Below are positions 2,424 through 16,805 of a stretch of DNA of 59,424 bases, piece after piece (position 1 is the stretch's first letter; the number at the start of each line of letters is the position of its first letter). The position numbers and the translations under genes are program-made. The stretch is taken from positions 1 through 59,424 of the forward strand of contig CAZNOK010000002.1 in the NCBI GenBank assembly GCA_964574605.1, in the 5' to 3' direction. The notes under the pieces were generated by a model. The model was given only the letters and a program-made list of their open reading frames with translations. It was not told where the DNA came from and searched no databases. The stretch comes from an uncultured Verrucomicrobiota bacterium (GTDB lineage Bacteria > Verrucomicrobiota > Verrucomicrobiia > Palsa-1439).

Positions 2424-3545
2424 ATGAATAACAACCACCTCACCACCCGTCGCGAGTTCGTCAAGACCGCCTCGGTGGCCCTTCTCGGCGCGTCGTTCGC
2501 TTCTTTGCGACTGCCGCGCGCCGAAGCGACGCCGTTGGACACATCGAAAATCAAGAACTACAGCCCGGACATGGAATACCGACGTTGCGGGAAGACCGGC
2601 TGGATGGTCTCTGCGGTCTGCATGGGCGGGCACTGGAAACGGATCAACCAGATCATCGGTGGCGCACCGATTGACGCGTATTCCGGCGATGTGTTTCGTC
2701 CAGATTTCACGCAAAACCGGTACGACGTGGTCACTCGGTTGATTGACCGCGGCATCAATTACATTGACGGGTGCAGCACGGATGAAGTTCACGCCTACGC
2801 CAACGCGCTCAAAGGCCGTCGCGATCAAATGTATTTGGGCTGCTCCTGGTATGAACGCGAGGCGCGTTTCCCGCAGTTCCGCACGGCAAAGGCGCTGCTG
2901 GACACGCTCGATGACGGCTTGAAACGATGCGGGCTGGAGTATGCGGACTTGTGGCGGATCATTTGTCTGACCGACGGTCGCAAGGATGCCGATGGCAAAT
3001 ATATCTTTCCGCACACCGAGACCGAGTCGGAGGAAATCGCCAAGGCCTTGGAGCAGGCCAAGCAGGCCGGCAAGATCCGGGCGGGCGGCGTCTCTTCCCA
3101 TGACCGTCCCTGGCTCGAATACATGATCACCACGTTCCCCAACCAGATTGAGGTCATCGTGGCGCCTTACACGACCAATACACGGGTCGTTCCCAAAAGC
3201 AGCTTCTTCGACGCCATTGTGAAGCACGATTGCGGTTGGTTCGGCATCAAGCCATTCTCCAGTAACGCCATCTTCAAGGGCGACGGTTCCCCGGACAGCC
3301 CACATGCGAACGAGGACAATCGAACGGCCCGCCTGGCGATTCGCCATGTTCTTTGCAATCCTGCCATAACGGCTCCGATCGCCGGGCTGGCAAGCGTGCA
3401 GCAGGTGGACAATGTGGCTCTGGCCGTGGCCGAGCGCCGCAAGCTGGACGGCGACGAACGGGCGGAACTCAAAGAAGCCAGTCTCTATGCGGCAGCCAAC
3501 CTGCCGAGCGACTACCAATGGTTGAAGAATTGGGACTACGTCTGA
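2424..3545 (+). CDS. Aldo/keto-reductase-family oxidoreductase with Tat signal
   Basis: Twin-arginine leader TTRREFVKTASVALLGASFASLRLPRAEA. The body is AKR-like (CMGGHW..., IDRGINYIDG, GKIRAGGVSSH). Confidence 0.7.
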   Translation: MNNNHLTTRREFVKTASVALLGASFASLRLPRAEATPLDTSKIKNYSPDMEYRRCGKTGWMVSAVCMGGHWKRINQIIGGAPIDAYSGDVFRPDFTQNRYDVVTRLIDRGINYIDGCSTDEVHAYANALKGRRDQMYLGCSWYEREARFPQFRTAKALLDTLDDGLKRCGLEYADLWRIICLTDGRKDADGKYIFPHTETESEEIAKALEQAKQAGKIRAGGVSSHDRPWLEYMITTFPNQIEVIVAPYTTNTRVVPKSSFFDAIVKHDCGWFGIKPFSSNAIFKGDGSPDSPHANEDNRTARLAIRHVLCNPAITAPIAGLASVQQVDNVALAVAERRKLDGDERAELKEASLYAAANLPSDYQWLKNWDYV

Positions 3546-3560
3546 CAAGTGCGTGTGATA

Positions 3561-5525
3561 ATGCAAACATCTCTATTGGTAGTGACATTCGCGCTGGCCG
3601 CTCTGCTCGGCGGGCCGGGCGTTTCTCAGGTGGCGGCCAGATCCTCCAACCTGCCGCCATTGATCGTGACCGATGACGCGCCTCGATTGAAAGGACCGCC
3701 CGCGACAGCCAGCGCGAAATCCAAGGACAAGAAATCTGCGGCGGACAACTCGTCCTGTTACATCTGCCACGTCAACCTCTTGGAGGATTCGTTTGCTCTG
3801 CGACACGAGGAGGCCGGCGTTGGCTGCGTGAACTGCCATGGGGATTCGCCTGCGCACGTCGCTGACGAGGCCAATCTCATTCCACCGGAAGTGATGTTCC
3901 CTTCGGATACCATCACGGCCGCCTGTGCCAAGTGCCACTCGACGCACAATGCCCCGGCAACCTCTGTGATTGCCCGGTGGAAAGAACGTTGTGCCGCTAG
4001 CGCCCAATCAGCACTCTGCACCGACTGTCACGGGAAGCATCGCTTCGCCAAGCGCACCATCGTCTGGGACAAGAAGACCGTCAAACTGCTCTCGGCGAGT
4101 GCTCGCGACGGGGCAACCGCCGGGGGTTCCGTTGCAGCGGCCTTCGGCAAGGCGTTGCGCGGCGGCAAGCAGGTGGCTAGTCGCGCCGAGTTCCGGCAGC
4201 GCCCGCTCACCGTCGAGTGCTGGGCCAGATTGAACAGCACGAAATCGTTCAACATCCTCGTCGCCAGCGATACCAAGGCGTCGGCGGAACATTGGGAACT
4301 GTATTCGTTTGTCGGCAGCGGCGTGTTGAGCCTGTATCAGCCGGGACGCGGCGGCAATGTCAGCGCGGACGTGAACATCTGCGACCGCAAGTGGCACTAT
4401 CTGGCGGCGATCATCGAGCCGGAACGTGTGCGGTTGTTCGCGGACGGCAAACTCGTGAAGGACGCGCCGGCCACACCGCTTGCCGGCGAGCCGAAGCCCG
4501 GCGATCTGGCGTTCGGCCAACTCGTCGAAGGCGGCATCGGCTGCGATGGCGCGGTGGACAACGTCCGTATCTCGGCCGGCGTGCGGGACATCAGCGCCAT
4601 GCCCGCCGGGCCGCTGACAAAAGACGCGACCACGCTCGGCTTGTGGGATTTTGATGACAAGCCGGCTGCAAGCGGCAAAGCTCCCGCCGCCACCGGATTG
4701 TTCGCCCGCGCCAACCTGACCGCGTGGTGCATCGTGCCGTTCGATGCGAAAAAGCGCGGCCCGGAAGAGCGGGCGCAAATGCTCGAAACACTCGGTTTCA
4801 AGAAATTTGCTTACGACTGGCGTCCGGAACATGTGTCGACGTTTGAGGCCGAGATTCTGGCGACGAAGAAACACGGCGTCGAGTTCACGGCGTTTTGGGG
4901 GATGAGCGAACCGATGTTCAAGCTTTTCGAGAAATACAATCTGAAGCCCCAGATATGGGTTATGCTGCCCCAGACGAATATGACGCAGGAGGCGCACGTG
5001 CAATTCGCAGTGCAGTGCATGTTGCCGGTGGTGGAGCGGACGAAACAACTCGGCTGCTCGCTTGCCTTCTACAACCACGGTGGCTGGGGCGGCGAACCGG
5101 AGAACCTGATCGCGGTGGTGAAACTGCTCCGCGAGCAACACGGCGCATCGCACGTCGGCATCGTCTATAATCTCCATCACGGTCACGATCATCTCGACCG
5201 GTTTCCGGCTGCGCTCGTCGCGATGAAGCCCTACCTGCTCTGCCTCAACCTCAACGGCATGACCAAGGACGGCGACAAGCACGGCATGAAAATCCTCCCG
5301 CTCGGCCAAGGCGATCTCGATTTGCAGTTACTGAAGACCATCCGCGACAGCGGTTATCGTGGTCCTATCGGCATCCTCAACCACACTGGCGAGGACGCCG
5401 AAGTGCGTCTCAAAGACAACCTCGATGGCCTCGACTGGCTGGTGGCGCAACTCGACGGCAAACCCGCCGGTCCGAAACCGCAGCCCCGTTCGTGGCGTCC
5501 GCCGTTGCCACCACAACCGAACTGA
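3561..5525 (+). CDS. Secreted fusion: tetrahaem cytochrome c + LamG (concanavalin-like) + xylose-isomerase-like TIM barrel
   Basis: Signal peptide MQTSLLVVTFALAALLGGPGVSQVAA (a GTG at 3549 is also possible). Four CXXCH motifs (CYICH, CVNCH, CAKCH, CTDCH) lie between nt 3756 and 4032. A LamG-like block follows (LTVECWARLNS...WHYLAAIIEPERVRLFADGKL...VDNVRISAG). The C-terminus resembles a sugar-phosphate isomerase/epimerase-type TIM barrel (GVEFTAFWG..., AFYNHGGWGGEPENL, IVYNLHHGHDHL). Confidence 0.75.
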   Translation: MQTSLLVVTFALAALLGGPGVSQVAARSSNLPPLIVTDDAPRLKGPPATASAKSKDKKSAADNSSCYICHVNLLEDSFALRHEEAGVGCVNCHGDSPAHVADEANLIPPEVMFPSDTITAACAKCHSTHNAPATSVIARWKERCAASAQSALCTDCHGKHRFAKRTIVWDKKTVKLLSASARDGATAGGSVAAAFGKALRGGKQVASRAEFRQRPLTVECWARLNSTKSFNILVASDTKASAEHWELYSFVGSGVLSLYQPGRGGNVSADVNICDRKWHYLAAIIEPERVRLFADGKLVKDAPATPLAGEPKPGDLAFGQLVEGGIGCDGAVDNVRISAGVRDISAMPAGPLTKDATTLGLWDFDDKPAASGKAPAATGLFARANLTAWCIVPFDAKKRGPEERAQMLETLGFKKFAYDWRPEHVSTFEAEILATKKHGVEFTAFWGMSEPMFKLFEKYNLKPQIWVMLPQTNMTQEAHVQFAVQCMLPVVERTKQLGCSLAFYNHGGWGGEPENLIAVVKLLREQHGASHVGIVYNLHHGHDHLDRFPAALVAMKPYLLCLNLNGMTKDGDKHGMKILPLGQGDLDLQLLKTIRDSGYRGPIGILNHTGEDAEVRLKDNLDGLDWLVAQLDGKPAGPKPQPRSWRPPLPPQPN

Positions 5526-10395: not shown

Positions 10396-11706
10396 ATGAA
10401 ACAAATTCTCTCCCTCCCCCTCCTCGCTTCGCTGCTAGCAATCGAAGCCGTGACATCGCAAGGTCCGTCGGTTACCGACTATCCCTCGATTCAGGAAGCC
10501 ATCCGCGCAAACCCCGGCCGGATGGTCTATCTGCCAGCCGGCGATTATGATATTTCGGAAAGAATCCACATCGGACGGCAAGGCGGCGGATTGTTCGGCC
10601 CCGGTCGCATCCGGCAAAACAATCCGAAGCACCCGATCCTTGTCGTCGAGAACGCGACCAACGCCCAGATCCGCGATCTCACGTTGGTGCGGCCCGAAGG
10701 CAAGACCGACACGCAAAGCGAAGGCGTGCTGGCAATCAAGTGTCGCAATCTCGTATTGGAAAACCTGCAAGTGCTCGACAACCGCACTCGCACCGCGGCG
10801 ATTGAGTTCCGCGATTGTTACGCGAGCCAGATTCGCCATTGTCTGGTCCAGAATTATCAGTGCGTCTCGGAAGATGACCGGACGATGGATAAGGATTCGG
10901 GCTACGCCTTCAAGTGTCTCATCGGCACCGGTATCGTCCTCAAGGACAGCCGCGCCACGCTGGTTCAGGGCAACCGCGTCATCGAACAGAACCTGTTTCC
11001 GACGCCGGAGAACAAAACGAAGCTTGGCCTTGGCGATTTCACGAAGAAGAACGCCACGCATGGCCGGTTCATCTCCAAAAAGGCTTGGGACGCAGGCTAC
11101 ACCGACAACTGGCACCAAGCGACCGCCATCCACGTCGCTTGCCCGACGACCACGGATTACACACAAGTGATCGGCAATTACGTCGAGAACTCCGGACAAG
11201 GATTCGACATCCACGCCGACCACGTGATCATCGCCAACAACATCGTCAAGGACACCATGATCGGCATGAAAGCCATTCACGGCTCGCGCAACGTCATCGT
11301 CACCGGCAATCAGTTCTCACAAAACGACCTCTGGAGCATCGCGATGCAAGCCGCCCGGTCGTCGCGTCCCGCCGTGAACGTTGACGGCGGTTCGATCATC
11401 GCCAACAACATCATTTCTGATTTTGGCTACGGTCACGCCCACTGGATGCGAGCCGGCGACGACCACGGCATTCCGATTCGCTTCGAAGCCGGCCAGACGG
11501 AAAACAACCCGCCGCTCAAGCACGTTATCATCCAAGGCAACATCATCTACGATACCGGCCGCGATGCGCTCAAAGTCCTTCCGCCACGCTACAAGTATGC
11601 CGTCCACATTGCCACGGAAGGCATTGCTCCGCCGAAGGAACTGCATTTCTCCAACAACATCTTCCATCCCGGAACAGCGGGAATTTCAAACGTGGATATC
11701 AAATGA
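10396..11706 (+). CDS. Secreted right-handed parallel beta-helix repeat protein
   Basis: Signal peptide MKQILSLPLLASLLAIEAVTS. Repeated beta-helix rungs (NAQIRDLTLV, NLVLENLQVL, IRHCLVQN, VIIANNIVKD, VIVTGNQFSQN, IIQGNIIYD). Confidence 0.6.
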   Translation: MKQILSLPLLASLLAIEAVTSQGPSVTDYPSIQEAIRANPGRMVYLPAGDYDISERIHIGRQGGGLFGPGRIRQNNPKHPILVVENATNAQIRDLTLVRPEGKTDTQSEGVLAIKCRNLVLENLQVLDNRTRTAAIEFRDCYASQIRHCLVQNYQCVSEDDRTMDKDSGYAFKCLIGTGIVLKDSRATLVQGNRVIEQNLFPTPENKTKLGLGDFTKKNATHGRFISKKAWDAGYTDNWHQATAIHVACPTTTDYTQVIGNYVENSGQGFDIHADHVIIANNIVKDTMIGMKAIHGSRNVIVTGNQFSQNDLWSIAMQAARSSRPAVNVDGGSIIANNIISDFGYGHAHWMRAGDDHGIPIRFEAGQTENNPPLKHVIIQGNIIYDTGRDALKVLPPRYKYAVHIATEGIAPPKELHFSNNIFHPGTAGISNVDIK

Positions 11707-13136
11707 CAATCACGCGACGCTCTGCCGTAAAAACCCTTCTCGCCACGTTTGCCGGAGGCGTGGTGAATCCGTCCTTCGGAGCGGACATCCGCAACGCGCC
11801 CGAGGAAATAATCAAGACACAAGTCTGCGTGATCGGCGGCGGCAGCGGCGGGACGGGTGCGGCGCTCGCCGCCGCTCGCGCCGGTGCCAAGGTCGTCTTG
11901 CTGGAACGCGAATCCATCCTTGGCGGCACTGGCACCTGCGCATGGGTCTGCGTCTGGCGCCCGGTCATGGGTGCCAACGGCATTCCTCGCGACATCTACG
12001 CGGCGATGCAAGAGGATCCGTTGGGCACGTCGGGCACCAACTACGCATCGAGCGGAATGGCGGGACGCGAAAAAGGTGGCAAGTGGCTGCCAAAGAATTC
12101 CAGCTTGGTGTATGAACCCCGAGCATACGATTACGCCGTCCGCGAAATGATCGAGGCGACCGGCCAATGCCAAACGCTGCTGGCCACGACGTTTTGCCGG
12201 GCGCGGGTGGAAAACGACACGATCAAAGCCGTGGAGGCTTGGTTCGCCGGCAAACGATTGGTAATCGAGGCCGATGTCTTCATTGACTGCACAGCCGATG
12301 GCGATGTCTGCGCCGATGCCGGCTGCGAATACCGCATGGGCGAGGATCCCAAGTCGCGGCACAACGAACCGTCGGCGCCGGAGCAGGCCGAGATGTCGCT
12401 CAACTCGTTGACACTCTGTTACCGAATCACCGACACGGGGGTCCCGCAGAAACCGTATCTGCCGAAGGGCGTCAAGAGTGGTAGTTGTCCGCTCGGCGCG
12501 TGCTACGACAAAATGCCCAATGGCGATGTCGTGGTCAACGCCGTCAGCATGATTAAAGGCAACGTCATCCTGTGCATGGAGCACAGCCAGTTGATGCGCG
12601 AGGCCCAGCGCCGCGTGTACGCGCACTTCCATGCGATCCAGACGCAAGAGTCGAGCAAGAAGGGATGGAACACATGGACGATTTCCGGGGTCGCGCCGCG
12701 GATTGGCGTGCGCGAAACCCGTCGGATTCTCGGCGACTACGTGTTGACCGAGAACGACTGCCAAGTCGGTCTCGCCAAGCAACCGCACAAAGACGTGATC
12801 GCCATTGCCGACCACTCCATAGACATGCATGGTCGCCGGGGACGATTCTACCGGCTGGATGGCCCCTATGGAATCCCCTATCGCTGCCTGCTGCCAAAGG
12901 GCGTGCGGAACCTAATGATCGCCAGCCGCGCTGCCAGTTTCTCGCACATTGCCGCGTCGTCGTGCCGTTTGCAGCGCACGATGACTACCCTCGGCCAAGC
13001 TGCCGGCAACGCCGCCGCTCTGGCCGTCAAACATGACATGGATCTGCGCCACATTGATGTCGCCGACCTGCAAGCCAAACTGCGAACGCAAGGCGTGGAC
13101 ATCGCGGCGCCGGTCAGACCAACTTCTCCGGCTTGA
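11703..13136 (+). CDS. Tat-signal FAD-dependent oxidoreductase
   Basis: ATGA overlap with the upstream gene. Leader MTITRRSAVKTLLATFAGG. Dinucleotide-binding motif VCVIGGGSGGTGAALAAARAGAKVVLLERESILGGTGT. Confidence 0.75.
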   Translation: MTITRRSAVKTLLATFAGGVVNPSFGADIRNAPEEIIKTQVCVIGGGSGGTGAALAAARAGAKVVLLERESILGGTGTCAWVCVWRPVMGANGIPRDIYAAMQEDPLGTSGTNYASSGMAGREKGGKWLPKNSSLVYEPRAYDYAVREMIEATGQCQTLLATTFCRARVENDTIKAVEAWFAGKRLVIEADVFIDCTADGDVCADAGCEYRMGEDPKSRHNEPSAPEQAEMSLNSLTLCYRITDTGVPQKPYLPKGVKSGSCPLGACYDKMPNGDVVVNAVSMIKGNVILCMEHSQLMREAQRRVYAHFHAIQTQESSKKGWNTWTISGVAPRIGVRETRRILGDYVLTENDCQVGLAKQPHKDVIAIADHSIDMHGRRGRFYRLDGPYGIPYRCLLPKGVRNLMIASRAASFSHIAASSCRLQRTMTTLGQAAGNAAALAVKHDMDLRHIDVADLQAKLRTQGVDIAAPVRPTSPA

Positions 13137-13139
13137 GCG

Positions 13140-14354
13140 CTACGCAGACCGCATGCGGATGAACCACGTGACATCTTCGTCAAGCTCATAGGGGCGGTTA
13201 AGCTCGGCGGAAATTTCATCCACTGCACGCTTCACGCCCCACTTTGGGTTCTCGCCTAGCTCGATGTCGTGGCCGCAAAGCAGACCGCCATGTTTAACTT
13301 TTGGCAGCCAAGCACGGATATCCTCGATGCAGCCCTCATAGGTATGATCGCCATCGACGAATGCGAAGTCGAGAGACCGGTCGGGAACCTGAGCCGCGGC
13401 TTCGAGGGAAGGCGCGCGCATAATGGTGCGCCTTCCAGCGGCAAAGTCGGTGCGGCGGAAGGCATCCGCGTGCCAGCGGTCCCATGTGGCTTGTGAGGTA
13501 TGGGCGTAAGCGGCCGGGCTTTGTTCATAGCGTGAGTTCTTGGGCCATTGCAGCCAAGGGTCCACCATGCGAAGTCGTAGGTCGGGCCGGGCGGCTAATA
13601 AGTAGGCGGAGAGTTTGCCGCGGAGCACGCCGATCTCGGCACCAGATGGGTTGGTGACACCTCGGAGGTGTTTGAGGATGGCATCGCCGCGTCCGATGCG
13701 GGGCCGGAAATCCTCGACGGGGCAGGACCAGAATGCATAGAACCAGCGAAGCTGTTCGACAGGACGGCCGGCAATTCCGTGCATATGGCCAACGACGATG
13801 TTGTTGGCATCGGCTGGCTTCATGAGATGCTGAAAATCCAGCCAGTTGAACTCTTTTTGCAGCCAGCGTGCCGCGATGCCGAGTTGGACCCGCGCCGCAT
13901 TGAGTTGGGTTTGATCCTTGAATGGCGACTTAAGCGTTTTCAACAGGGCCTCTGCTCGCTCCAACAGTTTCCGGTGGTGTGTCCGGTTAAGGATGAAGAA
14001 GCCGCTGTTGAAGTACTCCTTCGGCGGAATCCCGACCCGCCGAGCATCCTGTATGACCCAACCGCGGTCCCAGAGATCGCCGACACAAACCAGTTCCGGC
14101 AGATTCGCGTATGCGCGGGGATCGAACTGCTTCAAGAAAATCGTGTCGGCATCGAAGTAGAGAATGTTTTCCACTTCGGGAAACTCCTCGAACATCCGGA
14201 ATTTCAGGTGGTGCGGGTGTTGGACGCCATGCCGCAGCGCCGCCTCGGGGCCGAGAATGTGAACCTCCAGCCCAGTGCGCTGCCGGCAGGAGTCGGCGGC
14301 GAGTGTCGCCAGTAGTTCATACTTTTCGCCAACGCCGATGGTTACCGCGATCAT
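13140..14354 (-). CDS. GT8-like glycosyltransferase fused to class I SAM-dependent methyltransferase (Methyltransf_24-like)
   Basis: ATG 14354 overlaps the GT9 stop (ATGA); an alternative ATG lies at 14366. N-terminal half has DxD-type ILYFDADTIF and NSGFFILN. C-terminal half has LDFAFVDGDHTYEGCIEDIRAWLPKVKHGGLLCGHD. Confidence 0.65.
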   Translation of the reverse strand: MIAVTIGVGEKYELLATLAADSCRQRTGLEVHILGPEAALRHGVQHPHHLKFRMFEEFPEVENILYFDADTIFLKQFDPRAYANLPELVCVGDLWDRGWVIQDARRVGIPPKEYFNSGFFILNRTHHRKLLERAEALLKTLKSPFKDQTQLNAARVQLGIAARWLQKEFNWLDFQHLMKPADANNIVVGHMHGIAGRPVEQLRWFYAFWSCPVEDFRPRIGRGDAILKHLRGVTNPSGAEIGVLRGKLSAYLLAARPDLRLRMVDPWLQWPKNSRYEQSPAAYAHTSQATWDRWHADAFRRTDFAAGRRTIMRAPSLEAAAQVPDRSLDFAFVDGDHTYEGCIEDIRAWLPKVKHGGLLCGHDIELGENPKWGVKRAVDEISAELNRPYELDEDVTWFIRMRSA

Positions 14355-15478
14355 GAGCTTGTCCATATCGCCTGACAGAATTCCCTTTCTTTTGAACTCA
14401 GATACTTGACCGCGCCGCCGGCGAAGTAGCACTCGATGCGGCGGATGACTTCCTCCGCACTAATCATATCCATGCAACGCGGCAATAGGCGCGGCCATTG
14501 CTCGCGCGGATAGGCCAGCGCGTTTTTCGGTGGCGCGCTGCTCCCGTTGCCGGGCAGCACGACATCCACGCATATCTTGTCCGGCTTGTCTTTCTCGTCG
14601 CCATCGCCCAGCGGCACGGCCCGCGACTTCCAACAACCGCCGTTATCGCAGCAGAACAGCGCGCCGTTGGTGTGGATGTATTGATGATGCGGATACGCTT
14701 CCCACTGCGCCGGTTCGCGTCCGCCGGCCACCACCACGCACGGGCGGTTCTTTGGCATCCCCGTCTTGGTCTCGACCGCCGCCGCAAGATGCATCATCAG
14801 CGTCACCGGGCAGAGCACGCCTTGGGCGTGATAGACCAGCCGCACCAGTTGCCGCAGATCGGTCTTGCCGCGAAAGTCGAGTGCGCCTTTCAGTGCTGGA
14901 TGCTCGTGGCCTTTCTCGCCGACTTGCACGAACAGAATCTTGCCCCGGAAATAGTCCACCACTTTCTGGAACCGCTCGTGCGACCACCATTTGATGGTGA
15001 AGTCCTTCTTGCCGCCGGCCACGACGATCCAGAATGGCACCGGCTCCTTGGTGATCTCCTGCACTTGCGACATCCATTGCTTTTCCGGCGGCGCAAGATG
15101 AATGTCGCCCTTGAACGGGCCGGGACGGATCGCGACGCTGAGTTTCGCGCTGAGGAACTGCGTGAACCCGTGGATGAAATGCCACGGCTCGGTGTTGCTG
15201 TGGTGAATCAACGGATACTCGCACTGGATGACCTCGTCCGCGATCTGTAGCCGCGAGGCGTCCTCGCGGCCCGGTTTAGCCCCGCCGCGAACAGGGTTCG
15301 CGGCTACAGGCTCAGCCAATGGTGTGATATACGGATTGTTCTCCCAGAGTTGCGGGCAGGGTGTGCGCACATCCGTGAGAAACTGTTTTGGGTGCGACAG
15401 GTGCAAGTCGCGCACCGCTGCCGTCAACATCACGATGTCGCCGGGCGACAGGAAATTTTTCAGGATGATTTTCCTCAT
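14351..15478 (-). CDS. Glycosyltransferase family 9 (heptosyltransferase-fold) protein
   Basis: N-terminus KIILKNFLSPGDIVMLTAAVRDLH. C-terminal GT9-type Cys/CM..I....V signature (FCCDNGGCW...CMDMISAEEVIRRI). Its ATG overlaps the stop of the upstream poly-Ser ORF (ATGA at 15475-15478). Confidence 0.75.
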   Translation of the reverse strand: MRKIILKNFLSPGDIVMLTAAVRDLHLSHPKQFLTDVRTPCPQLWENNPYITPLAEPVAANPVRGGAKPGREDASRLQIADEVIQCEYPLIHHSNTEPWHFIHGFTQFLSAKLSVAIRPGPFKGDIHLAPPEKQWMSQVQEITKEPVPFWIVVAGGKKDFTIKWWSHERFQKVVDYFRGKILFVQVGEKGHEHPALKGALDFRGKTDLRQLVRLVYHAQGVLCPVTLMMHLAAAVETKTGMPKNRPCVVVAGGREPAQWEAYPHHQYIHTNGALFCCDNGGCWKSRAVPLGDGDEKDKPDKICVDVVLPGNGSSAPPKNALAYPREQWPRLLPRCMDMISAEEVIRRIECYFAGGAVKYLSSKEREFCQAIWTSS

Positions 15479-16101
15479 GGCGGGCTGGAGCTGGAGGAAA
15501 CGCTCGACAAGCTCACGCTCGAAGAATTCGAAGACGCTGGAGGGCTGGAAGCACTGGAAGATGGCGGAAAAGTGGAGGAAGACGACGAACTATAGGAGCC
15601 GTCGGTAAAAGAACTGCTGGATGAACTCGATGACGGCGGAGCCGAAGACGAGGAGCAGCACGAAGATTGCGAAGAAGACAACGAAGCACTCGACAGGCTC
15701 GTGCTGGAGGAACCACTGCTGCTCGGTGGCGAGCTTGTCGAGCTGCTGCTTGGCGGTGAGCTTGCCGAACTGCTGCTGGAAACGGACAGGCTTGATGATG
15801 AACTGACGGACGAGACGCTACTGCTGGAACTCGGCGACGAACTGCTGCGACTGGAAGAACTGCTTGGCGGCGAACTACTGCTGCTGGAGGAACTGGAAGA
15901 CTGAGACGAGATGGAAGAACTGGAGGACTGGGAGGAGGACGACACGCTCGACAGGCTCGCGCTGGAACTACTGACCGGCGGTTGCCCGCCGGTATGCGAG
16001 AGCGGCGGCTTGCGCTTTTTGCGGGGATGACGCCGCAGGGTCCGGCGGCGTTCCGGCTTGCGCTCCTTCCGAGCTGCTTTCTTTTTTCGTCTCCGGTTCA
16101 C
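15475..16101 (-). CDS. Highly basic N-terminus + poly-Ser low-complexity protein (hypothetical)
   Basis: GTG start at 16101. Twenty of the first 31 residues are K/R (MNRRRKKKAARKERKPERRRTLRRHPRKKRK). About 160 residues of almost pure Ser with scattered P/Q/V/L follow. It has the same Ser-coding style as the linkers of the clearly coding 1110-aa gene. It is stop/start coupled to the GT9 gene. Low complexity keeps several frames open, so confidence is moderate. Confidence 0.5.
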   Translation of the reverse strand: MNRRRKKKAARKERKPERRRTLRRHPRKKRKPPLSHTGGQPPVSSSSASLSSVSSSSQSSSSSISSQSSSSSSSSSSPPSSSSSRSSSSPSSSSSVSSVSSSSSLSVSSSSSASSPPSSSSTSSPPSSSGSSSTSLSSASLSSSQSSCCSSSSAPPSSSSSSSSFTDGSYSSSSSSTFPPSSSASSPPASSNSSSVSLSSVSSSSSPP

Positions 16102-16105
16102 GGGT

Positions 16106-16174
16106 GTAGGGGCGGACTGCGTCCGCCCCTGTTGTCCGTCGCATTGCGGCGGGGCGCACGCAGTGCGCCCCTAC
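16106..16174. repeat. REP-like double-hairpin element (GTAGGGG...CCCCTAC), copy D
   Basis: The sequence is GTAGGGGCGGAC-TGC-GTCCGCCCC ... GGGGCGCAC-GCA-GTGCGCCCCTAC. It has two 9-bp-stem hairpins and inverted GTAGGGG/CCCCTAC ends. It is intergenic, between the stop at 16185 and the start at 16101. Confidence 0.75.
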
Positions 16175-16184
16175 CGCGCGCACC

Positions 16185-16805
16185 TCACGGCTGACAGACT
16201 GCCGTTACATCATCGCTGGTCAAGCCGACTTCGTTGTCGTTGACCACATAGATGCCGCGATATTTCCGGACCTCAGGCTTCCCCGCGACCAGTAAAGGGC
16301 GATTGTCCACATACGGCGATGCGGTGTCCCGCGCCAGAAACACAAAACCAGCATCGCCTTCGCGCTGGCAGTAGAGGTTCACGCCATCGGCCTTGCTCTT
16401 GTTGAAGGCAATCTCCACCGCTCCATGCGGCAGCGGATTGGCGACCAGCGTCGGCTGCGCCACCGTCATGTCGGTGGTGTCTTCCGCGCCGACGATGCCG
16501 AGTTGGATGCCGAGGGCTTCGGTGTAGTTGCGGTGCCCCTTGACCCGCTTCGCGAACTTGCGCACGTGCGCTTCCAGTTCCCGACGGGTGTCGTCCTTGT
16601 CCTTGGTCGCTTGCTTCGCTGCGACGTTGGCAGTTGCGGCAGTAGTGGTCTTGGTACGGATCGCAGTATTATCGTCGCCGATTTCCGTCAGATCATCGGC
16701 ACTGATCCCCAAGGTGGCCCCGATGGCCGTGGCTGCGGTTTTGAACCGGTCATGCCAACTGACCAGTTCCGCATCGCTCTTCGGCATATATGCGCCTTTT
16801 GCCAT
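16185..16805 (-). CDS. Hypothetical protein (helical N-terminal half, beta-rich FN3-like C-terminal half)
   Basis: Clean 206-aa ORF with ordinary composition, and every overlapping ORF is shorter with biased composition. No motif that I can name. Confidence 0.6.
   Translation of the reverse strand: MAKGAYMPKSDAELVSWHDRFKTAATAIGATLGISADDLTEIGDDNTAIRTKTTTAATANVAAKQATKDKDDTRRELEAHVRKFAKRVKGHRNYTEALGIQLGIVGAEDTTDMTVAQPTLVANPLPHGAVEIAFNKSKADGVNLYCQREGDAGFVFLARDTASPYVDNRPLLVAGKPEVRKYRGIYVVNDNEVGLTSDDVTAVCQP

Follow-up and report, generated by a model that had tools for sequence, protein, structure and literature searches.

Positions 13140-16101 of the 59,424-nt stretch of Verrucomicrobiota DNA analysed here (hereafter the window, to which all coordinates without a locus name refer) carry three genes on the minus strand, namely those of a poly-Ser protein, of a glycosyltransferase (GT) of the GT9 type and of a fusion of a GT8-like domain with a methyltransferase domain (GT8-MT). 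Direct reading of the sequence confirmed the tight coupling of this trio that had been described in a first-pass annotation of the stretch. The poly-Ser open reading frame (ORF) of 208 aa extends from a GTG at 16101 to a TGA at 15477-15475, which shares bases with the ATG (15478-15476) of the 375-aa GT9 ORF, and the TGA of the latter (14353-14351) in turn shares bases with the ATG (14354-14352) of the GT8-MT ORF. ATGA overlaps as such are common in operons; the feature above chance is rather the repeated pairing of poly-Ser tracts with this GT9 enzyme.

For a survey of the GT9 neighbourhood, one genome per species was used, resulting in 80 loci (L007-L086) that cover nine phyla or more, with GT9 identities of 55-81%. 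A tract was defined as at least 17 Ser in 30 residues within about 6 kb of the GT9 gene. As controls served 80 loci around an unrelated ATP-binding cassette (ABC) ATPase, comprising 856 kb from mixed phyla, which replaced a first control set around the neighbouring flavin adenine dinucleotide (FAD) oxidoreductase that had yielded only four loci. Poly-Ser tracts were present in 55 of the 80 GT9 loci (74 tracts in 885 kb), compared with a single tract in one of the 80 control loci, and the contrast (Fisher P = 9e-22) holds at thresholds from 15 to 24 Ser per 30 residues. The suspected recurrence of Ser-rich ORFs next to this GT9 subfamily was thereby confirmed. Nor are its homologues consistently embedded in lipopolysaccharide (LPS) or capsule loci lacking such ORFs, as 40 of the 50 full-length GT9 loci (at least 12 kb) carry a tract, versus 1/47 control loci of that length.

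The flanking tracts lie on the same strand as GT9 in 52 cases and on the opposite one in seven (73 loci with the GT9 motif placed). An ORF with a C-terminal poly-Ser tail ends -4 to +76 nt from the GT9 start in 16-17 of the 70 locatable GT9 genes, and in two loci (L055, L057) the order is reversed, with a poly-Ser protein bearing a twin-arginine translocation (Tat) signal after GT9. The association was seen in Verrucomicrobiota, Acidobacteriota, Gemmatimonadota, Armatimonadota, Eremiobacterota, Planctomycetota, Proteobacteria, Acidimicrobiia and Bacteroidota, as well as in two of 12 IMG/VR viral contigs (L175, L182), while the remaining 47 kb of the window are free of poly-Ser tracts. A full-text literature search revealed no description of a poly-Ser/GT9 pairing.

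All-against-all clustering of the neighbours displayed no recurrent homologous partner except one, a protein of ~850-1520 aa with FHA, Ser/Thr kinase and WD40-propeller domains, which lies beside GT9 in 16 of the 80 loci, mostly from Chthoniobacterales and some from Planctomycetes (including L020, L022, L025-L027, L033, L035, L047, L050-L052, L071 and L081); recurrent LPS, capsule, export, polymerase-like or ADP-heptose pathway genes near GT9 were not found in this clustering. Some poly-Ser partners comprise only a twin-arginine/lipobox head and poly-Ser (L055, L056, L057, L075), whilst others contain PqqD and a Gly-rich domain (L046, L063, L067), a tyrosinase (L085) or an Rv2525c-like hydrolase domain (L024, L044), belong to the LamG/RHS/Ntox toxins (the window, L030 and others) or are PPYPPF-repeat proteins (Caballeronia, L036); those of the viral contigs are a 473-aa protein with 354 Ser (L182) and a fibre-like protein (L175). 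Since the partners are otherwise unrelated, their common denominator is the Ser tract itself; instead of an operon with a constant set of genes, a model that was rejected, we adopt one of GT9 accompanied by any poly-Ser protein.

Two GT9-linked partners carry (DSS)n or SSSSSDSSDSS repeats (L014, 3-212; L021, 3211-4488), a type of repeat resembling vertebrate dentin phosphophoryn. In a further locus (L001, 2552-6004), the GT9 gene comes after that of a Phage-tail_3 (host-specificity-like) protein and a tandem pair of small ORFs, both with a conserved N-terminal domain of ~45 aa and a poly-Ser tail, which suggests a prophage-borne version that modifies tail components.

The poly-Ser ORF of the window begins with a basic head (~16003-16101), in which 20 of the first 31 residues are Lys or Arg; a brief spacer of Pro and Gly leads to a Ser-rich tail of ~165 residues (~15478-15972), and hydrophobic segments are absent. 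The basic composition and the missing hydrophobic segment had been reported before and were borne out, whereas the tail, then described as nearly all Ser, is about 70% Ser; the whole ORF has 116 Ser. All six Ser codons are in use (AGC 28, TCC 27, TCG 23, AGT 19, TCT 13, TCA 6), and since such a mixture of AGY and TCN codons cannot be produced by replication slippage, it points to selection for the amino acid Ser. The head is kept at the same position and followed by poly-Ser in four relatives (L183, L184, L007, L009), whose GT9 enzymes are 78-83% identical to that of the window, with the consensus M-x-RR-x-KK...ER[KR]PER[RK]R[TQ]LRRHP[RH]K[KR][RH]KP; all four use an ATG start, in contrast to the GTG of the window. 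Over its 22-codon core, the window differs from L007 by eight synonymous and one non-synonymous codon, and the non-synonymous changes in other pairs are mostly Lys/Arg/His exchanges. The Ser-coding DNA is unalignable among the relatives, yet Ser coding and a similar length are retained; L183 and L009 have an insertion, a small globular domain, ahead of the final short Ser run. A phmmer search with the 44-aa head against 1.84 billion representatives gave no match, so that the head is traceable through synteny only.

Judging from these sequence comparisons, we have high confidence that the poly-Ser ORF is a real translated gene whose Ser frame is under purifying selection, which also answers the question raised in the first-pass annotation as to whether the frame is conserved in relatives. 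If it were instead a low-complexity, slippage-prone spacer that is open by chance in one frame, the absence of the exact 208-aa product from a collection of 15 billion proteins, the choice of the opposite strand by the gene caller in L184 and the lack of an ATG start and of a clear ribosome-binding site in the window would find an easy explanation. Such a spacer would, however, account neither for the conserved protein sequence of the head, the codons of which have changed mostly synonymously among four relatives with ATG start, nor for the codon mixture, the retention of Ser coding despite unalignable DNA and the recurrence of the same protein design across phyla; a non-gene is already very unlikely and, in our view, scarcely credible. 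The ORF was annotated as a gene by JGI in L183, while in L184 the caller picked a spurious ORF on the opposite strand. The reverse complement of poly-Ser DNA forms long open frames of the 'LEELLEE' type (in the window 15701-15904, 19310-19762 and 20327-20545, all on the plus strand), and such an antisense frame is publicly annotated in place of the true poly-Ser gene at 4566-4943 (minus strand) of L184, a systematic annotation artefact.

The GT9 enzyme matches Pfam Glyco_transf_9 (PF01075) with 25.0 bits versus a gathering cut-off of 22, the match being confined to residues 161-238. More than 4835 homologues were found at E <1e-5, the best 120 of which share 61-83% identity; their sources are Verrucomicrobiota, Polynucleobacter and many further lineages, and they have precomputed PF01075 matches and, where source names are given, are called 'ADP-heptose:LPS heptosyltransferase' or 'GT9 family protein'. 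By sequence identity, the enzyme belongs to a very large, unnamed and highly conserved subfamily (55-83% across phyla). NCBIfam, PHROGs and PADLOC contain no model that matches GT9, the poly-Ser ORF or the 206-aa and 305-aa proteins encoded upstream, and with no such model for these proteins a reading as a defence system was dropped. Searches of PDB chain sequences with the single GT9 sequence or a 49-sequence profile yielded nothing useful, a tblastn search of GenBank phages and PLSDB plasmids with GT9 found nothing, and a fold search in BFVD revealed generic phage GT9-like proteins only.

The AlphaFold2 (AF2) monomer model of the enzyme displays a GT-B fold (pLDDT 86.5, pTM 0.88), and its top 30 PDB matches in Foldseek are all GT9 enzymes or TibC (3tov, 1psw, 4rap, 4rb4, 6dfe, 2h1h; E 4e-9 to 2e-6), the best being a Veillonella GT9 (3tov), WaaF, TibC and WaaC. 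The N-terminus is WaaC-like, with a strand at 2-7, the GD motif and a helix at 12-28; S11-P12-G13-D14 is invariant in 49 sequences and aligns with 'SMGD' of WaaC and 'WVGD' of WaaF, and the 'K-x-W' and 'G-x-MH-x-AAA' motifs of the C-lobe align with WaaF. Invariant Cys residues at 276/277, 282, 303 and 335 are situated in a C-lobe insert. Canonical GT9 enzymes (WaaC, WaaF; 3tov, 1psw, 2h1h) share PF01075, the fold and, as in WaaC with its D13, the N-terminal beta1-GD-alpha1 arrangement, but they do not have the Cys-rich insert, are located together with ADP-heptose genes in waa/LPS clusters, show much lower conservation from phylum to phylum than the window subfamily (55-68% between phyla) and have no link to poly-Ser ORFs, as judged from control loci that were not GT9 loci.

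The bacterial autotransporter heptosyltransferases (BAHTs) TibC and AAH, to which the enzyme had been tentatively connected, offer a closer comparison with regard to these Cys residues. TibC is a proven Ser O-heptosyltransferase. Its four Cys (C339, C342, C358, C370) bind Fe, and both its dodecamer assembly and its activity on TibA depend on them; its D110 is the catalytic-base residue of the GD motif (PMC4358343). The window enzyme resembles it in the GD motif, in the four Cys within a C-lobe insert with shared 'GCW' and 'C-x-x-[LM]-I-[ST]' contexts and in its fold (4rap/4rb4, TM up to 0.56). In an hhalign comparison over 197 columns with a probability of only 5%, C282-W pairs with C342-W and C335 with C370, and the other two Cys lie 3-4 residues off C339 and C358, in loops. 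A local hmmsearch of the GT9 profile against TibC, WaaC and WaaF gave marginal scores; the relationship to TibC therefore rests on fold, hhalign and motif inspection. From these alignments, the Cys4 group is a candidate for a metal finger that both enzymes probably share. Model and alignment revealed no extra N-terminal domain, and thus the flattened beta-barrel of TibC (residues 1-97, required for activity) is absent from the window enzyme.

At the system level, BAHTs are GT-B/GT9-related cytoplasmic enzymes that hyperglycosylate many Ser, as the window enzyme presumably does, and their target gene is adjacent and overlapping; the order tibC-tibA recurs in L055 and L057. The acceptors of TibC, however, are strand-loop-strand repeats of a beta-helix autotransporter, here disordered homopolymeric Ser tracts, and the proteins adjacent to the window enzyme have no autotransporter domains, unlike the self-associating autotransporter with its 19-residue repeats. 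Moreover, BAHTs occur in enterobacterial and Burkholderia pathogens, while the GT9 family of the window spans many phyla and phages. The enzyme is best described as a GT9 related to BAHTs, yet not a member of them.

The GT8-MT ORF downstream scores 33.8 bits with Glyco_transf_8 (PF01501; cut-off 24.3) over residues 47-156 (~13899-14228), where the DxD motif of the GT-A domain reads 'FDADT' within 'YFDADTIF', and 65.6 bits with Methyltransf_24 (PF13578; cut-off 26.3) over profile positions 2-105 of 105 (~13263-13637). All three Pfam families assigned in advance to the two enzymes thus exceed their cut-offs. Among solved structures, 6g7d comes closest to the methyltransferase domain, with weak similarity (E 0.03). 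In the public gene call, GT8-MT starts at ATG 14366, 12 nt upstream, and has 408 aa; since the MIAVTIG start at 14354 is the sole one possible in L009, the sole one conserved in L009 and L010, and ATGA-coupled in L010, we prefer the latter, as did the first-pass annotation. The same fusion also lies beside GT9 in L009, L010, L012 and Caballeronia telluris L036, whereas elsewhere the downstream gene encodes a methyltransferase together with a GT4 (L001, L004) or a methyltransferase alone (L183), and in homologues the GT9 domain itself is fused to GT2, Mannosyl_trans3, GT4, a class I S-adenosylmethionine (SAM) methyltransferase or Methyltransf_24. Such fusions parallel the separate GT8-MT gene of the window, and the fused or adjacent transferases and methyltransferases fit a short pathway in which GT9 would initiate, another transferase extend and a methyltransferase modify the glycan.

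The trio and the features upstream of it are listed in Table 1.

Table 1. Features of the GT9 island in the window and the evidence on which their description rests.
Feature	Coordinates	Strand	Basis
GT8-like GT-A and Methyltransf_24 fusion, putative second sugar transferase and glycan O-methyltransferase	13140..14354	-	Pfam, start comparison
GT9-fold (GT-B) glycosyltransferase, 375 aa, putative initiating protein O-glycosyltransferase	14351..15478	-	Pfam PF01075, AF2, Foldseek, hhalign
Poly-Ser protein gene, 208 aa, putative acceptor substrate	15475..16101	-	ORF sequence, conserved head, Ser codon usage
Intergenic stretch with two GC-rich stem-loops	16102..16184	-	Sequence, RNAfold
206-aa protein, no family match	16185..16805	-	tblastn synteny
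221-aa CxxC...CxxCGC protein, likely GT9-system accessory	16832..17497	-	P0009 fusion, L010 gene order
305-aa ORF, possible immunity protein	17490..18407	-	Position only
1110-aa polymorphic-toxin-like protein, putative additional substrate	18424..21756	-	Pfam, Ser tracts, synteny

The stem-loops directly 5' of the poly-Ser start have a folding energy of -56.9 kcal/mol, and comparably strong hairpins (-37 to -57 kcal/mol) of unrelated sequence, none with a U-tract, occupy the same site in the four relatives (L183 4211-4303, L007 5197-5312, L009 5149-5266, L184 4307-4395); they may act as an attenuator, terminator or mRNA-stability element controlling the poly-Ser/GT9 operon. In a promoter scan of 13-22.2 kb, no sigma-70-like site was found and terminator-like matches stayed at background level. 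The 206-aa protein, which likewise has no family in Pfam, is encoded ahead of every basic-head poly-Ser gene of this clade (tblastn, 85% identity in L007 and 49% in L009; also in L183 and L184).

The CxxC protein adds a fourth component to the trio noted at first: in a metagenomic protein of 540 aa (P0009) its domain is fused N-terminally to GT9, and in L010 its gene (2806-3099) lies directly upstream of GT9, so that it is probably part of the GT9 system. Its sole family match is phrog_13558, of unknown function. Its C-terminal tail consists of 7-aa repeats (G-x-x-Q-x-x-G type) encoded by a degenerate 21-nt (and 42-nt) tandem array at 16850-17100, and similar arrays were seen in L005 and L184.

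The 1110-aa protein starts with MSSSSSSSS and has two LamG domains, a C-terminal Ntox44 domain (Pfam) and poly-Ser linkers at 20869-21081, 20218-20520 and 19204-19587; a signal peptide or other export signal was not recognised in it. It had been proposed as an additional substrate, a role which remains conditional and is consistent with conserved synteny: LamG/poly-Ser proteins lie upstream of GT9 in the close relatives as well (L004, L005/L008, L007, L009, L010). The 305-aa ORF directly after the toxin gene has one N-terminal hydrophobic segment and no match in any of the four family collections, Pfam included; from its position, it is possibly the cognate immunity protein. GC content is low (0.50-0.54) across 17-19 kb, and the toxin-like protein, the 305-aa ORF and the low GC are together characteristic of a toxin-tip/immunity cassette. 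In L030, an RHS version shares this N-terminal design of poly-Ser and LamG. As the flanks of the window carry genes of carbohydrate-active enzymes (CAZymes) and sulfatases, it was rejected as a prophage. The FAD oxidoreductase gene (11703-13136) abuts the island in the window and lies on other contigs with unrelated flanks in the closest relatives (L087-L090); the position of the GT9 island relative to its present neighbours is therefore not fixed.

Ser-rich substrates beside dedicated GTs are also found in Gram-positive Ser-rich repeat protein (SRRP) systems, the cytoplasmic GTs of which act before export and are followed by further GTs in stepwise extension, but these systems differ from the present one in their GT4-type GtfA/B, SecA2/SecY2 export, SASA-type dipeptide repeats and LPXTG anchor (PMC5207161, PMC7661464). 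Neither a GtfA/GtfB pair nor SecA2/SecY2/Asp genes were present in the window or among the recurrent GT9 neighbours. In mycobacteriophages, capsid and tail-tube proteins are reportedly glycosylated by phage-encoded GTs, and GT and methyltransferase genes lie near structural proteins with Ser/Thr-rich extensions, comparable to the pairing in L175 and L182; the enzyme families and hosts are different ones, and the link here is genomic only.

Gene order and coupling, the translated poly-Ser frame, the fold and motifs of GT9, the domains of its partners, the association across phyla and the domain fusions are shown by the present analysis. Building on these, we regard the region with moderate confidence as a dedicated protein O-glycosylation module, in which poly-Ser tracts would be hyper-O-glycosylated in the cytoplasm and the glycans then extended and capped by methylation. 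Acceptors would be the small poly-Ser protein as well as the linkers of poly-Ser in the LamG/Ntox44 protein next to it. A soluble cytoplasmic GT9 would use Asp14 (SPGD motif) as its general base and would attach the first sugar, taken from a nucleotide sugar, to the hydroxyls of many Ser in the disordered tracts, and a TibC-like Cys4 metal finger may stabilise the enzyme or aid oligomerisation; the GT8-like domain would add a second hexose and the Methyltransf_24 domain would O-methylate the glycan as a cap. The predicted product is a densely glycosylated, extended, mucin-like and protease-resistant segment, which in other lineages would be exported, several times behind a Tat signal; that several partners bear Tat signals is in keeping with modification prior to export. 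For the original proposal of a substrate with its transferases and a methyltransferase, this means that gene content and poly-Ser association support it, while Ser as the acceptor, the identities of the donor and further sugars, the methylation target and the physiological role are what we infer from them, with heptose suggested by analogy only.

Several points weigh against such a module. Its support is genomic and structural rather than biochemical, about 30% of the GT9 loci have no poly-Ser within 6 kb, and the taxonomic mix of the controls differs, with only 10 Verrucomicrobiota among them, whose 119 kb are likewise free of tracts. Being absent in L004/L005/L008 and L010, the small poly-Ser ORF is not an obligatory component, and its product in the window has no recognisable export signal and a basic head that is left unexplained. 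The Foldseek TM values are 0.44-0.56 for all matches and do not discriminate TibC from WaaC, WaaF and the other LPS enzymes; the proposed TibC/AAH connection draws some support from the four-Cys motif. In hhalign, the core is matched best by WaaF (probability 64% over 89 columns), versus 5% for TibC. In the cultured Polynucleobacter paneuropaeus (L189), poly-Ser is missing nearby and the neighbours are ManC, an aldose epimerase and a methyltransferase. This last locus, with what look like sugar-nucleotide and surface-glycan genes, is among the reasons to ask whether GT9 and GT8-MT act on a non-protein glycan (LPS core, capsule, exopolysaccharide or glycolipid) and the poly-Ser genes merely travel along in surface, toxin or phage islands. 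Pfam and source names group the enzyme with LPS heptosyltransferases, to which the WaaF core match adds, GT9 ends a phage tail module in L001, a frequent place of seroconversion genes, and a nucleoside diphosphate (NDP)-sugar epimerase is encoded downstream in L004. Yet an enrichment of ~70-fold in nine phyla, with partners alike only in their Ser tract, is hard to explain by hitch-hiking, as is the tight coupling of poly-Ser tail ends to GT9 starts; no LPS, capsule or export gene recurs near GT9 in the all-against-all clustering, and the family is present in Acidimicrobiia, which are not known to make LPS. We consider a non-protein target unlikely.

A further reading takes the poly-Ser protein as a primer or scaffold, not as the end product: a glycan polymer would grow on its Ser in the manner of glycogenin or proteoglycans, and the basic head would anchor this polymer to an anionic surface or nucleic acid. 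In its favour, GT8 is the family of the self-priming glycogenin, and in O-antigen synthesis chains are known to be terminated by methyl caps. Several partners consisting of a targeting head and poly-Ser alone, as well as the frequent fusion of extra GT domains to GT9, point in the same direction. The data do not tell short glycans from polymers; no polymerase-like or export machinery recurs near GT9, and a decorative role suits poly-Ser linkers within large enzymes and toxins more than priming does. We consider a scaffold decidedly unlikely. Phosphorylation of the Ser tracts, as in phosvitin or phosphophoryn, with another role for the GT9-like protein, appears highly improbable. It is suggested by the FHA/kinase/WD40 protein in one fifth of the loci (16/80) and by the (DSS)n repeats of L014 and L021; the window island, however, contains no kinase, this neighbour is found mostly in Chthoniobacterales and some Planctomycetes and therefore may reflect lineage synteny, and the GT and methyltransferase fusions would stay unexplained.

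Poly-Ser linkers and tails of bacterial secreted enzymes, toxins and surface proteins have long been noted, and we know of no reason or modification described for them. With a conserved enzyme family beside such tracts in at least nine phyla and phages, a testable answer is at hand, namely that the tracts are glycosylation substrates. Cultured carriers such as Chthoniobacter flavus Ellin428 and Caballeronia telluris LMG 22936 make direct testing feasible, and annotation would gain as well, since gene callers now miss poly-Ser ORFs or call the wrong strand and the enzyme is labelled 'LPS heptosyltransferase'. In C. flavus, a poly-Ser ORF belongs to locus L022, and the GT9 region of interest lies at about 232.9-234.6 kb of NZ_ABVL01000001.1. 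Dedicated O-glycosylation of Ser-rich proteins is already known from BAHT and SRRP systems; here it would involve a different enzyme subfamily, homopolymeric acceptors and a much wider spread. Should this be confirmed, it would amount to a new and general route of protein O-glycosylation, one beyond the BAHT, SRRP and Pgl paradigms with their focus on pathogens. It would also join enzymes of the TibC type to a family that is far larger and older, and would provide a simple pair of tag and enzyme for glycoengineering. For the subfamily as a whole, we see the chances evenly balanced that it is a pan-bacterial, phage-borne, TibC-related poly-Ser glycosyltransferase with a Cys4 finger, which recognises homopolymeric Ser tracts as such and makes mucin-like glycodomains; these would then be situated in small head-plus-tail carriers, Tat-exported lipoproteins, linkers of toxins and enzymes, and phage fibres. 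If this is true, poly-Ser tracts of bacteria would be a genetically encoded glycosylation tag, which would explain why such linkers exist and persist.

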